NCBI GenBank assembly: GCA_027001645.1
Contig: JALTMP010000137.1
Coordinates: 1-20,443, forward strand
Direction of reading: 5' to 3'
DNA from: Candidatus Heimdallarchaeota archaeon
GTDB taxonomy: Archaea > Asgardarchaeota > Heimdallarchaeia > Heimdallarchaeales > JAJRWK01
Length of the DNA stretch: 20,443 bases
Shown here: positions 13,553 through 17,601 of the stretch, one piece after another
Layout: each line of letters opens with the position of its first letter
How positions within the stretch are numbered: position 1 is the first letter of the stretch
Program-made: the position numbers and the translations under genes
The notes under the pieces: model-generated
The model's database searches: none
Seen by the model: the letters and a program-made list of their open reading frames with translations, nothing else
Told to the model about the DNA's origin: nothing

Positions 13553-13565
13553 AGAACAACTAGTA

Positions 13566-13586
13566 TATTTTTTATATAATATATTT
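13566..13586. promoter_or_regulatory. Near-palindromic A/T-rich TATA region shared by the divergent genes 12485..13552 (minus) and 13634..14527 (plus).
   Basis: tttttatataatatattta sits in the 81-bp gap between the two divergent starts. Confidence 0.35.
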
Positions 13587-13633
13587 ACCGAATCGATATC
13601 TTGTCTTTCTCCAATTCTAGCCCGGTGAAGAAA

Positions 13634-14527
13634 ATGGTATTGGTAGAACTATTACCAGAATACATGTGGTTTGGAACTGCCCTCTTTTCACTTGTCTTCG
13701 GCGGAATAATGATCTTTTTCTACTTGTACAGTGCACTTGGTTCTTCCGAGGCCGGGGAGGCAGGTGAAGGAGTTGATTCCGAAATAGGAGCGGAAGCAGA
13801 CCTAGATGCGGACATGGACACTGACTTATCTGCAGATGGAGCTTACGATATTGATGCAGAAATTGAAATGGATCTTGAAAGTTTATCATCTGTTGAATCG
13901 ACGGATATAGGAGCTGAACTTGTCGATGCTGAAGCAGGGGGTGGCCTTTCCTTAGAACACGGCGCTCACATGGGTGGCGTCGAAACCATGGGCCTATTTG
14001 AAGGGTTTGAAGCCCCTCAGACCGTAATTGTTGAAGGAAGTAGTGTTCTGCTACCCTCGATTAGTGGTGCAACCTTCACATACGGATTAACAGGAGTAAT
14101 GCTCTGGTTTGATTCTGCCCCAACAGATCAATCTGTAACTTTTGCACTATTGGTTGCAATTATTGGAGGATTTGGAATGAGCAAGGCAATGAAAGAACTC
14201 ACGAAAGGCCACATGACACCAGTAACTGGAATCCAAAGAGGCAATTATGCGACTGTGATATATGAGGTAACCCCAACAAAATCGGGATTAGTTAGAATCA
14301 TGCAAGGAGATGGTTCTTCAAGAAAAGCAATTGCAATAGGAGCGTTTCCACATGACTACTTCAGCCAAGGAGAAAGAGGATTGGTCTGGGAAACCAATGG
14401 AACCATAGTTAAGATCACCCGAGAATTCCAGCCCTCATCCCCCCACATAGTTGGTCATCAATCGAACAAAGTGAAAACTCAGAAAAGCGAGAAGGCCTAT
14501 AAACAAAAGAGGAAAAAGAAGAATTAG
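13634..14527 (+). CDS. Membrane protein with a long acidic (D/E/G/A) repeat region and a C-terminal NfeD-like beta-barrel; the usual partner of SPFH/flotillin proteins.
   Basis: The ORF track starts at TTG 13601. The ATG at 13634 has GGTGA 5 nt upstream. There is an N-terminal TM helix, then SSEAGEAGEGVDSEIGAEADLDADMDTDLSADGAYDIDAEIEMDLE, a second hydrophobic segment, and a C-terminal GLVRIMQGDGSSRKAIAIG...GERGLVWETNGTIVKI segment resembling the short-NfeD OB-fold. Confidence 0.6.
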   Translation: MVLVELLPEYMWFGTALFSLVFGGIMIFFYLYSALGSSEAGEAGEGVDSEIGAEADLDADMDTDLSADGAYDIDAEIEMDLESLSSVESTDIGAELVDAEAGGGLSLEHGAHMGGVETMGLFEGFEAPQTVIVEGSSVLLPSISGATFTYGLTGVMLWFDSAPTDQSVTFALLVAIIGGFGMSKAMKELTKGHMTPVTGIQRGNYATVIYEVTPTKSGLVRIMQGDGSSRKAIAIGAFPHDYFSQGERGLVWETNGTIVKITREFQPSSPHIVGHQSNKVKTQKSEKAYKQKRKKKN

Positions 14528-14593
14528 CGCTTTCAATAAGTCCTCTTCTTCCTTCTTTAAAATGATAAAGGATGACAATAAGTGCTTGGCCAG

Positions 14594-15775
14594 TCATGAT
14601 TCTTCTGCTTTGAATCCAAATACTAGGTAAAGATCGGAAGTAACTTCCTCTATGTTTGGGATTTCACCAGTAAACTTCTCTGAGGGCAATGAGTATTTTT
14701 GGCAGAACAATCGGGCGAAACGGAGCAGAGCCCTCTCCAGGAACAAACTGGTTTTGCTAGCTACCAATAAGAATGTCAGCTCTTTTTCGACATGAATTAT
14801 GAGCTCTGAGCCCTTAAGTTTGATTGATCTAATTAGTGATGGGGACTGAAGAGTTTCTGCCATTGCTGATTGCAGAGCAGAAAAGAATCCGCTTAGAAGT
14901 TCGACTTCTATCCCCCATTCTAATCTTCGAAACCGATAAGTATAGATGGGAATTCCTGACTTTGTTATCACTATCATTTGTTCAATTCTTTGACCTTGGA
15001 GAAAACCAGGTTGACCTCCTTGGAAGTAGGAAAGGGAAACTAGGAAAACGCCAACACCTATGATTGAGTAGCCGACGATTTCGGCTAACCACGCACCAAT
15101 AGTTGGATTAACAAGCAAGTGAATAGTGTCACCCAAGCCGGACACTGCGGGTCCAATGAAAAAGCTCAGCATAACTCCTCGCCTCATGAAGATGATTTGC
15201 TTTTTTTGCTGTTCGTTCAATGCATTTTCGATAGCATCTTGCATGTTGCTTAAAGCCCAATAAATAAGGAATATTGCTGGAAGAAGTATTCCAATCCATG
15301 AAATTGTTGTCCAAACAATTACTGTGACTCCATCGACATCTCTGAACTCAACGAGTAATTCAGGATTTGTGATAACTCCTGCTATAGTTAGAAGAGTCAT
15401 ACCATACAAAGCACCAATGGCAACACCGGTTCTTGGAATAGAGATTTCTCCATGAAATCCCTCTAGAAAAACAATCATCAAGGCAAAGATAGCAACGGTC
15501 AAGATCAATGATGTTATCCCGATTAAATCAAGTATTCTTAAATTCGAGACAATGCGATACTCTAAGATCTTGGATTGTGCACCGCCCGACGGAATTAATT
15601 CGGGAATTTCAATAATAATGTTGGTCAGACTGAAAAGGATGAGAATCCCGATTAGAATTAGAAGCAAGTCTATTTTGTGCCTTGAATACGTTATCACGAA
15701 CCAGCGGATCATGAATAGGCTAACGATTGCGAGAACTGTATGCACAAACAAGTAAGCGAAGACAAAGTAATCCAA
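14594..15775 (-). CDS. Polytopic membrane protein (about 7 TM helices) with a C-terminal soluble roadblock/LC7-like domain.
   Basis: Seven hydrophobic helices cover residues 1-260. The C-terminal 125 aa (ITKSGIPIYTYRF...LLSGFFSALQSAMAETLQS...IRSIKLKGSELIIHVEKELTFLLVASK) align by eye with the N-terminal domain of the 3505..4218 protein. The start is TTG 15775, with AGGAGG about 10 nt upstream. Confidence 0.75.
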   Translation of the reverse strand: MDYFVFAYLFVHTVLAIVSLFMIRWFVITYSRHKIDLLLILIGILILFSLTNIIIEIPELIPSGGAQSKILEYRIVSNLRILDLIGITSLILTVAIFALMIVFLEGFHGEISIPRTGVAIGALYGMTLLTIAGVITNPELLVEFRDVDGVTVIVWTTISWIGILLPAIFLIYWALSNMQDAIENALNEQQKKQIIFMRRGVMLSFFIGPAVSGLGDTIHLLVNPTIGAWLAEIVGYSIIGVGVFLVSLSYFQGGQPGFLQGQRIEQMIVITKSGIPIYTYRFRRLEWGIEVELLSGFFSALQSAMAETLQSPSLIRSIKLKGSELIIHVEKELTFLLVASKTSLFLERALLRFARLFCQKYSLPSEKFTGEIPNIEEVTSDLYLVFGFKAEES

Positions 15776-15910
15776 TAATTTCGATCCTCCTTGGGAAGCA
15801 ATGCAGTACTGACTTCATATCTTGGTTACGATAATAGTATTTATGCTTTTGACCTAAGAGCAAAGCGGTCTTATTCTCACTTATTGGTAATTGAATTTGG
15901 GCAAAATGAG

Positions 15911-15942
15911 GTTAATATATAAAATATATAGGATATATTCCA
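15911..15942 (+). promoter_or_regulatory. TATA-rich promoter region upstream of the flotillin gene.
   Basis: ggttaatatataaaatatataggatatattcc lies 45-75 bp upstream of ATG 15988. The Shine-Dalgarno motif GAGGTGG is at 15977-15983. Confidence 0.35.
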
Positions 15943-15987
15943 TTTTCTTATTTCTGTATTCTTCCTCAATACTCGTGAGGTGGAATC

Positions 15988-17601
15988 ATGGTAAGTCTGT
16001 CAAGTCCTCAATTATGGATTGGCCTGGGCATTAGTGCTGCCATGCTGGTTGCATTAATGGGAGCGCTAATCAGAACAAGGTACAAAGTCCTCGACTCCAG
16101 CAATTTTGTACTTCACTTTCGTCGAGGCAAACTAAAAAACAAAAGTTATGGTGGATCGTTCTTCCTACTTCCTATTTTCGACAAATACGTCGTTTTGAGC
16201 ACTGCAATACAACAAGTAGAAATTCATGCACAAGAAAAGGTCATTACCCGCGAAAACCAACCTGTAATCGTAAACGGATTATTGGTTTGGAGAATAATCG
16301 ACCCTGAAGCAGCATATCGCGCGATCGGATCCCAATACGGTCACAATGCGATGACGAGTTTGAACAAGATATTGGAGCAGATCGTTGAGTCAATCATTCG
16401 CACTACTGTCGCAAAATTGACCATTGACGAGGTACTACGTGAGAGACAGATCATTGTGGAAGCAATAACAAAGGAGCTCTTTAGTGTAGTTAGTGACTGG
16501 GGCATAAGCATCGAAACAGTTGAAGTCGTTCAAGTGGAATTGACTAATACTGAGTTATTTCAGAACTTACAAGCAAGGTTTGAACAAGAAGCGCGAAAGA
16601 AAGCCACAGAAATTACCATTGAGACTGATAAGGAACTAGAGCAAAGGAGAATCGAGCAAGACTTCGAAATTGAGAAAATCAGGGCAGATAGAGAATTGGC
16701 CTTAAGGATATACCGAACAGAACTGGAGGAAAAGGCCCGCATGAGAGAACTTGAAAGAGATCGACAAATCGTTGAAATGCAAAAGCAAGTGGAACTCGCG
16801 GAAACTCAAAAACAAAGAGAGGTTGAAGTGTTAGAACAACAAAAGGAAAAAGAAGTCGGTGAACTTGAAAGGCTGAAAAAATCCCAGTTTGCTAAGATGG
16901 AAAGAGAACGAGAGCTTTCAGAAGCAAAAATCACCAAGCAAACAAAGGAAATCAAAGCTGAAACACAACTTATCGAACGTAGCAAGGCGGCAGAGGCTAA
17001 GAAACTTGAGCTTATCAAGACACAAATTCAGATTGCTGCTGAGAAAGAATTAAGAGAAGCCAAAGCCCATGCTGAAGCAGTTCGTTTGCAGTCGGAAGCG
17101 GAAGCAATGAAAATTAAGATGATGGCAGAAGCAGAAGCTGAACGTCGAAGAAAAATTGCTCAGGCAACTAGGGAAGCACTACTTGCAGAGGCAGAAGGAA
17201 AGAAAGCAGTGCTTCTGGCAGAGGCAGAGGGGCTTGCTGAAAAGGTAAGAGCCCAGCAACAAATCAACGAAGCTATGCTAATGAAGGAACTCATCCTGCA
17301 ACTCCCCGAGATTGCGAAAAGCATTAAAATCGGTGAAATTTCCTGGCTAAACCTTGGAAACGGTGCTTCTGGCGGGAATGGAAAAGGAAATGGCAGTCCT
17401 TTAAGCATCATTCCGAAGAACATACTTGAACTCTTAGGGATCGCTCGACATTTTGGACTCGACATTCCCCAACTTGTAGATGCTGTCAAGAAGCAAGAGA
17501 CTTCACAGTCTGCTGATCTTCCAGAGAAAGAAAAGACAACGACCAAGCAAGGAAACAAAGCAAAGCCAGTGTCGAAAAAGGCTTTATCTAAGAGTAGATA
17601 G
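15988..17601 (+). CDS. SPFH/Band-7 family protein (flotillin/FloT-like) with a long EA-repeat coiled coil.
   Basis: An N-terminal TM helix is followed by the SPFH core (VLHFRRGKL...GGSFFLLPIFDKYVVLSTAIQQVEIHA...). The C-terminal region is Glu/Ala/Lys-rich (AEAEAERRRKIAQ...LLAEAEGKKAVLLAEAEGLAEK), typical of flotillins. Confidence 0.9.
   Translation: MVSLSSPQLWIGLGISAAMLVALMGALIRTRYKVLDSSNFVLHFRRGKLKNKSYGGSFFLLPIFDKYVVLSTAIQQVEIHAQEKVITRENQPVIVNGLLVWRIIDPEAAYRAIGSQYGHNAMTSLNKILEQIVESIIRTTVAKLTIDEVLRERQIIVEAITKELFSVVSDWGISIETVEVVQVELTNTELFQNLQARFEQEARKKATEITIETDKELEQRRIEQDFEIEKIRADRELALRIYRTELEEKARMRELERDRQIVEMQKQVELAETQKQREVEVLEQQKEKEVGELERLKKSQFAKMERERELSEAKITKQTKEIKAETQLIERSKAAEAKKLELIKTQIQIAAEKELREAKAHAEAVRLQSEAEAMKIKMMAEAEAERRRKIAQATREALLAEAEGKKAVLLAEAEGLAEKVRAQQQINEAMLMKELILQLPEIAKSIKIGEISWLNLGNGASGGNGKGNGSPLSIIPKNILELLGIARHFGLDIPQLVDAVKKQETSQSADLPEKEKTTTKQGNKAKPVSKKALSKSR

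Follow-up and report, generated by a model that had tools for sequence, protein, structure and literature searches.

In Streptomyces, the conservon is a four-gene operon in which a histidine-kinase-like membrane sensor (CvnA), a roadblock/LC7 protein (CvnB), CvnC and a Ras-like GTPase (CvnD) constitute a regulatory system resembling that of G-protein-coupled receptors (GPCRs). In a different kind of membrane-associated unit, SPFH and NfeD proteins are encoded together, as in the floT/yuaG-yuaF operon of Bacillus subtilis. Longin and roadblock domains serve as platforms for small GTPases (PMC3747258; PMC10933270). For Asgard archaea, ~130 Asgard clusters of orthologous genes (asCOGs) of the longin/roadblock superfamily have been reported, many of them lineage-specific fusions (bioRxiv 10.1101/2020.10.19.343400; PMC10933270; PMC12290439), and fusions to GTPases and to two-component domains have been documented (bioRxiv 10.1101/2020.10.19.343400; PMC10933270; PMC4917890; PMC12290439). 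Here we analyze a 20,443-nucleotide stretch of DNA (the window) from Candidatus Heimdallarchaeota archaeon (assembly GCA_027001645.1, contig JALTMP010000137.1), which belongs to the family JAJRWK01, assigned by GTDB to the order Heimdallarchaeales (PMC11193907). Five adjacent open reading frames (ORFs) of the window, labeled A to E (12485..19523), are at issue, and gene C is the principal subject. Judged from a predicted model, its product is a seven-helix membrane protein with a cytoplasmic tail of the longin/roadblock superfamily; it shares both phylum and domain superfamily with the Asgard expansions. A fusion of a longin or roadblock domain to a seven-transmembrane (7TM) bundle is undescribed in the literature searched, and the family may stand in the asCOG tables without comment.

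Predicted architecture of the gene C product

Gene C begins with a TTG start codon, upstream of which lies a GGAGG Shine-Dalgarno motif with a spacer of 10 nt. Hydropathy suggests six to seven transmembrane (TM) segments. An AlphaFold2 model computed with a 36-member alignment (mean predicted local distance difference test score, pLDDT, 87.6; predicted template-modelling score, pTM, 0.86) contains seven TM helices (residues 3-33, 36-60, 81-108, 113-136, 157-183, 188-221 and 224-251), and the first and second outside loops form two short beta-hairpins. Basic residues favor the loops after TM1, TM3 and TM5 by 7 to 3 and, therefore, the N-terminus is placed outside and the tail in the cytoplasm. 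The modeled tail consists of two strands (264-271 and 276-281), a helix (291-309), three strands (317-320, 323-330 and 333-339) and two final helices (344-361 and 375-385). This bb-a-bbb-a-a order is that of a longin domain, the roadblock order being a-bb-a-bbb. Where a roadblock protein has its N-terminal helix, the tail of C has only a helical turn of four residues ahead of strand 1, and its two helices come after strand 5 instead. As the N-terminal helix of roadblock is replaced in longin by an extra C-terminal helix (PMC10933270), application of this distinction to the model assigns the tail a longin topology. A preliminary description of this DNA had envisaged a 7TM protein with a roadblock/LC7-like tail. 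The seven helices, the cytoplasmic tail and the superfamily all stand, the structure prediction having returned a roadblock/longin-superfamily fold for the C-terminal domain, but the roadblock detail gives way to a longin order of elements.

When the model was compared with the PDB using Foldseek, the matches split into two sets: the tail retrieved longin domains and the bundle retrieved GPCRs. The targets of the tail include TRAPP Trs23/Bet5 (3cue_A, 3cue_C), AP-2 sigma (6owt_S), AP-1 sigma3, zeta-COP, delta-COP, MON1A and Fuzzy; the chains matched include 9ddt_B, 2hf6, 9lol_B and 9rs8_A. E-values range from 3.5e-3 to 1.5e-2. Template-modelling scores, normalized by target length, reach 0.46-0.63 where the target is small and has a single domain; MON1A and Fuzzy, which are larger chains, score 0.17-0.21. 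Both in topology and in structural matches, the predicted tail is thus of the longin type. Eukaryotic longin platforms (TRAPP Bet5/Trs23, Mon1-Ccz1, Fuzzy/Inturned, AP sigma and COPI zeta) share its fold and order of elements. However, they are soluble subunits of complexes, whereas the domain in C is fused to a 7TM bundle, and identity is in the range of 11-22%.

No curated Pfam or NCBIfam family matches the window's C protein above its cut-off. No Pfam longin family passes the threshold, the score for Fuz_longin_1 being 14.3 bits against a cut-off of 26.1 (E 0.047), and Robl_LC7 (PF03259) gives no match. Among 36 family members, Pfam detects Fuz_longin_1 in four (best E 2.2e-4), Robl_LC7 in one (2.8e-4) and Sybindin in one. 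The best matches of a tail profile among PDB sequences are a dynein light chain roadblock (E 0.15), a Robl_LC7 protein (0.19) and Trs23 (0.22), none of which is significant, and PDB roadblock proteins reach E-values of 0.15-0.7. Although below threshold, the leading matches of the tail are confined to one superfamily, that of Roadblock/LC7 and longin. Roadblock/LC7 proteins (MglB, dynein light chain roadblock and LAMTOR/Ragulator), which come first in this search, have in common with the tail of C a G-(I/L)-P motif at the loop before strand 2. In the C family this motif appears as G-(I/L/V/M)-P, a roadblock-type form; 97% of members have G274, and 57% have P276. Longins of the GTPase-activating protein (GAP) type, the FLCN/NPRL2/SMCR8 class, have an adjacent G-P motif before strand 2 and a conserved arginine finger (PMC12290439); many members of the C family have a basic residue after F282, but it is not a conserved feature. 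Ragulator is further akin to C as a membrane-tethered GTPase platform (PMC10933270), its anchor being the lipidated LAMTOR1 and that of C an integral 7TM domain. A longin SNARE identity was also considered for C and rejected: the domain order is reversed, and the protein has neither a coiled coil nor a tail anchor.

The seven helices of the bundle adopt a GPCR-like arrangement in the predicted model. The likeness is one of fold only. GPCR homology or signature motifs are not detected in the bundle by Pfam or NCBIfam, identity is 5-13%, and a full-length family profile searched against PDB sequences produces only hydrophobic noise and no relatives of the bundle.

The 7TM-longin family and its gene neighborhoods

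HMMER, run exhaustively against 1.84 billion representative proteins, recovered 165 clusters related to C at E<=1e-3, 40 of them at E<=1e-10. Most are 350-400 amino acids (aa) long and aligned over the whole length, and the family shares a layout of ~370-390 aa. All five organism-labeled members are from Asgard archaea: Heimdallarchaeota (MFQ5978342.1), Hodarchaeota (MFX0116581.1), Odinarchaeota (MFW9995532.1), Lokiarchaeota/Promethearchaeota (TXT63290.1) and JAJRWK01. TXT63290.1 is annotated 'membrane protein of unknown function', and the other members are named 'hypothetical protein' or are nameless. A word-indexed homologue search with C found three close relatives, to which the 36-member alignment as query added one; hydrophobic words probably swamped the candidates. 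Scanning of a genome collection with C gave at least one locus, and scanning of metagenomes with a motif-restricted alignment (AFLQPQR) gave a single locus. The lack of any curated family above cut-off might suggest a chance ORF or a product of misassembly in place of a real gene or fusion. The probability of this is negligible: the 165 clusters of the same length and layout, together with the confident AlphaFold2 model, rule it out, and both the identical C protein on independent assemblies and the strong Shine-Dalgarno motif before the start speak for a genuine gene.

Across 105 full-length members, conservation is highest in the longin domain and in the LQ(P/G)Q linker that follows TM7, and lowest in the outside loops. 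The bundle has few conserved residues, and these are located at the cytoplasmic ends of helices: F103 and F107 (end of TM3), Q190 and G200 (start of TM6), and G242 and Y250 (TM7). These cytoplasmic-face residues would fit a coupling between bundle and tail, but do not constitute proof of it. One relative, P0100 (545 aa), has its longin-type tail at residues 425-536, suggesting a different N-terminal architecture.

The window harbors a second longin-type protein of 237 aa (3505-4218, + strand), in which a TRASH metal-binding domain (E 3.8e-7) lies C-terminal to the longin part. Its N-terminal domain matches Pfam Longin with an E-value of 2.7e-5 (24.4 bits against a cut-off of 26.2) and Fuz_longin_1 with 0.009. 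As tblastn aligns its longin part with the tails of distant 7TM-longin members at ~40% identity over 45-58 aa, the soluble and the membrane-fused domains appear to be related. The same longin part also matches a segment (L017 3651-3944, - strand; 27% over 99 aa, E 1.3e-5) of a 674-aa gene with NosD/Beta_helix domains that is situated ~3 kb upstream of the family member P0009 on the opposite strand.

Eleven distant family loci were inspected for their gene content (P0004-P0012, P0063 and one metagenome locus), with 20-33% identity to C and drawn from several Asgard lineages; 2-10 kb on each side was examined, contig permitting. In none of the 11 does a Band_7 gene lie near the family member, and tblastn (E<=0.01) finds no relatives of A, B, D, E or a gene labeled F. 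Neighbors vary from locus to locus. P0004 and P0012 each adjoin a gene for a CLC chloride channel that carries CBS domains (L008 9265-11214; L020 11383-12999), and DinB-family genes are found near P0006 and P0012 (L009 9172-9627; L020 13587-14063). CLC and DinB represent the only partly recurring neighborhood among the family loci examined.

Gene C beside a flotillin-like gene

The six-frame ORF list reproduces the ORFs and coordinates of the preliminary description exactly. A and B diverge, B and C converge, C and D diverge again, and E follows D on the same strand (Table 1). The lengths of the products of B, C, D and E are matched by independent gene callers on public contigs, and direct reading of the sequence shows that the starts of B, C and D are each preceded, at 6-10 nt, by a Shine-Dalgarno-like motif. 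Contigs identical or ~80% identical to the window come from hydrothermal-deposit metagenomes. The E-D-C-B-A order is kept in three related contigs with 79-85% identity, and a 79% identical copy of C is present on JAJRWK010000135.1 (metagenome-assembled genome (MAG) 'archaeon isolate Dive96_bin2.176').

Table 1. Coordinates of the features of the A-E locus in the window
Feature	Position	Strand	Length	Remark
Gene A, PhoU-domain regulator, probable AbrB/SpoVT-type N-terminus	12485..13552	-	355 aa	divergent from B
AT-rich quasi-palindrome, A/B divergent intergenic region	13563..13588	.		15-nt arms, 80% complementary
Gene B, membrane protein	13634..14527	+	297 aa	ORF; alternative TTG start at 13601
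Gene C, 7TM-longin protein	14594..15775	-	393 aa	ORF; same product on public contigs
Predicted cytoplasmic longin/roadblock-superfamily domain of C, residues 264-385	14621..14986	-		predicted model, Foldseek
Predicted seven-TM bundle of C, residues 3-251, GPCR-like helix arrangement	15023..15769	-		predicted model
Divergent C/D intergenic region	15776..15987	.	212 bp	AT-rich palindromes 15912-15943, near D
Gene D, flotillin-like SPFH protein	15988..17601	+	537 aa	Band_7
N-terminal membrane anchor of D, residues 6-30
SPFH domain of D, residues 35-214	16090-16629			followed by a long E/A/K-rich region
Gene E, HEAT/ARM-type alpha-solenoid	17874..19523	+	549 aa	sub-threshold Adaptin_N

The designation of D as a flotillin-like SPFH protein holds on the basis of its sequence, in line with the preliminary description. 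Band_7 (PF01145) covers the SPFH domain with 86.2 bits against a cut-off of 23.6 (E 3.6e-24), and hydropathy indicates an N-terminal hydrophobic anchor. The more specific models remain below their thresholds: Flot (PF15975) scores 20.6 bits against 27 (E 5e-4), and FloT NF058507 of NCBIfam 48.7 bits against an equivalog cut-off of 700 (E 5.8e-13).

Gene B had been called NfeD-like, and the argument that B and D are classic operon partners requires this call. The layout of B, with an N-terminal TM helix, a ~90-aa D/E-rich linker, a second hydrophobic region, a ~70-aa all-beta C-terminal domain and a Lys-rich tail, resembles that of a short NfeD protein, in which TM helices are followed by a small beta-domain. 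A single-sequence AlphaFold2 prediction displays six strands in the C-terminal part, but with a pLDDT of 34.7 it is unusable as a model. Neither the whole protein nor its C-terminal 117 aa matches NfeD in Pfam (PF01957) or NCBIfam at E<=10. PDB sequences yield no match to B, and a plasmid tblastn with B retrieved nothing annotated NfeD. Alignment with hhalign to Escherichia coli YbbJ and to the 2k5h domain gave no signal, and a word-indexed search with the C-terminal half found nothing, B itself also being unrecovered. The B homologues in the analysis are ~70% identical. The one hint in favor of NfeD is a single pairwise BLASTP, in which B aligns with the first two strands of the NfeD oligonucleotide/oligosaccharide-binding fragment 2k5h (33% over 30 aa, E 7e-4). 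B is therefore best described as NfeD-like in layout only. In SPFH-NfeD operons such as E. coli qmcA-ybbJ, the two genes overlap on one strand. D supplies the SPFH member here, and B does lie on the same strand, as previously stated. However, B and D are 1.46 kb apart with C on the other strand inside the gap, so that the immediate adjacency of an NfeD gene to a co-oriented SPFH gene is not found and an operon of the two falls. Because C separates them, B and D are placed on separate transcripts. B may or may not be an NfeD-type companion of D.

Are B, C and D nevertheless parts of one functional module? The preliminary description had proposed so, with B as the NfeD protein and C as a 7TM-roadblock protein that links flotillin scaffolds to a sensor or GTPase switch. 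B, C and D are direct neighbors, all three encode membrane proteins, C and D diverge from a single intergenic region, and the arrangement recurs in the related contigs. Conservation of the arrangement only at 79-85% identity is, however, explained by shared ancestry and is little informative. The opposite orientation of C precludes an operon, the NfeD identity of B is unverified, and in the synteny test, by which the proposal itself was to be judged, none of the 11 distant loci had a gene of the Band_7, B-like or E-like kind. In other Asgard MAGs, the likely counterparts of C have CLC channel and DinB genes beside them instead and are thus located elsewhere. We consider a B-C-D module quite improbable. 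A link between C and SPFH/NfeD is not supported beyond this lineage, in which C is at most co-regulated with the flotillin.

Upstream of B, the regulator A contains a PhoU domain (E 6.8e-6, 26.8 bits against a cut-off of 23.5), and a copy in the related contig L004 is 83% identical. The AbrB-PhoU regulator of the preliminary description is confirmed in its PhoU part. Its AbrB-type N-terminus is seen weakly, as a MazE_antitoxin/AbrB-type match of 11.9 bits against a cut-off of 24.7 (E 0.23). The palindromic TATA region reported between the divergent genes A and B is present, and this quasi-palindrome is nearly invariant in L004, a relative with ~80% identity. It probably is the TATA/BRE (transcription factor B recognition element) region of A and B. 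A TATA-type sequence is almost automatically palindromic, and such palindromes are expected at divergent archaeal TATA promoters.

The HEAT-repeat protein noted after the flotillin corresponds to E, a HEAT-type solenoid directly downstream of D. Its matches are sub-threshold: Adaptin_N (PF01602) scores 33.7 bits against a cut-off of 37 over two matched stretches (E 2e-8), and Cnd1, PDS5 and HEAT also fall below their Pfam cut-offs; in NCBIfam, the DVU0298 HEAT family is matched at 8.7e-6. Asgard proteins with an Adaptin_N domain have previously been reported (PMC10307638). The D-E pair is retained in L001, a relative with 85% identity (solenoid at L001 6249-7943).

Beyond the five genes, the window encodes an NFACT (Rqc2/NEMF-type) protein (5848-8037, +; Pfam families taken from the identical gene on L002), a Mut7-C RNase-domain protein (8060-8617, +), a macro-domain protein (11600-12196, -) and an AAA_21 ATPase (4570-5517, +). 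A 602-aa protein with a Lys/Pro/Ser-rich middle (9708-11516, -) has an identical copy in sister contigs and belongs to no Pfam or NCBIfam family, its best match being FtsA_C (E 0.14). A 156-aa protein without a family match (19549-20019, -) has a Met/Arg-rich N-terminus and a C-terminal half that by eye is apparently helical; it is only 62% identical in a relative whose flanking genes are ~85% identical.

A candidate membrane platform for small GTPases

What might a longin domain built into a membrane protein do? We favor, at an even balance of confidence, a reading in which the locus juxtaposes separately transcribed, membrane-related genes in a lineage-specific manner, and C is a membrane platform for small GTPases and not a dedicated SPFH/NfeD partner. 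Judged only from fold and context, the most likely role of C is that of a membrane-integral platform or sensor for small GTPases, and C is more likely a stand-alone GTPase platform in the membrane than a partner of the flotillin. The 7TM module would serve as the membrane anchor of C and may detect a cue from the membrane or from outside the cell. Its longin domain would probably be dimeric, as in other longin/roadblock proteins, and the platform could recruit or regulate one of the many Asgard small GTPases, in the role of guanine nucleotide exchange factor, GAP or tether. Such a protein would follow the same logic as MglB-MglA, Ragulator-Rag, TRAPP-Rab and the Streptomyces conservon, with sensor or anchor and platform united in one polypeptide. 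The conservon has in common with this scheme the combination of membrane sensor, roadblock-type protein and small GTPase; unlike the conservon, C has the 7TM bundle fused directly to the platform domain and no GTPase neighbor.

A number of observations weigh against a GTPase platform that stands apart from the flotillin. No small GTPase gene is encoded in the 20-kb window or beside any family member examined. The longin/roadblock similarity of the window's C protein lies under curated cut-offs, and the longin is a broad fold class, some members of which bind small molecules or only dimerize (PMC4917890). In addition, the sample of 11 distant loci is small and was drawn from C's side only, and the divergent C/D region is common to three related genomes, which leaves room for co-regulation there. 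The lack of GTPase neighbors is in line with the published observation that Asgard GTPases do not, in general, share operons with longin or roadblock genes (PMC10933270). It is also compatible with a different role for C, that of a transporter, channel or lipid-handling protein whose longin-like tail would serve ligand binding or dimerization in a PAS/GAF-like manner, without a GTPase. Two relatives of C adjoin CLC channel genes, and longins belong to a wider ligand-binding and dimerization fold class (PMC4917890); we regard this role as a real, if somewhat unlikely, alternative.

The platform reading can also be extended. 7TM-longin proteins might be Asgard-specific receptors in which small GTPases are recruited or switched by a longin platform under the direct control of the GPCR-like bundle, the receptor being co-regulated in this lineage with the flotillin and the adaptin-like solenoid. 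We deem this extension unlikely as it stands. If true, it would represent a one-polypeptide counterpart of receptor-G-protein or Ragulator-Rag signaling, and it would explain the delivery to membranes of Asgard small GTPases, which are devoid of eukaryote-type lipid anchors and rarely occur in operons with regulators (PMC10933270).

Whether SPFH proteins build the membrane-attached baskets of a cultured heimdallarchaeon is under discussion (bioRxiv 10.1101/2025.11.06.686947), and for this reason the locus is worth studying in culture. With an adaptin-like solenoid on one side of the flotillin and a membrane longin on the other, it is a reasonable target, though the genomic link is lineage-specific. 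Asgard archaea contain dozens of small GTPases and >100 longin/roadblock families, and how these are attached to the membrane is an open question (PMC10933270). A longin platform built into a seven-helix protein, as predicted here and conserved across Asgard archaea, offers a concrete and testable candidate for the link between GTPases and the membrane.

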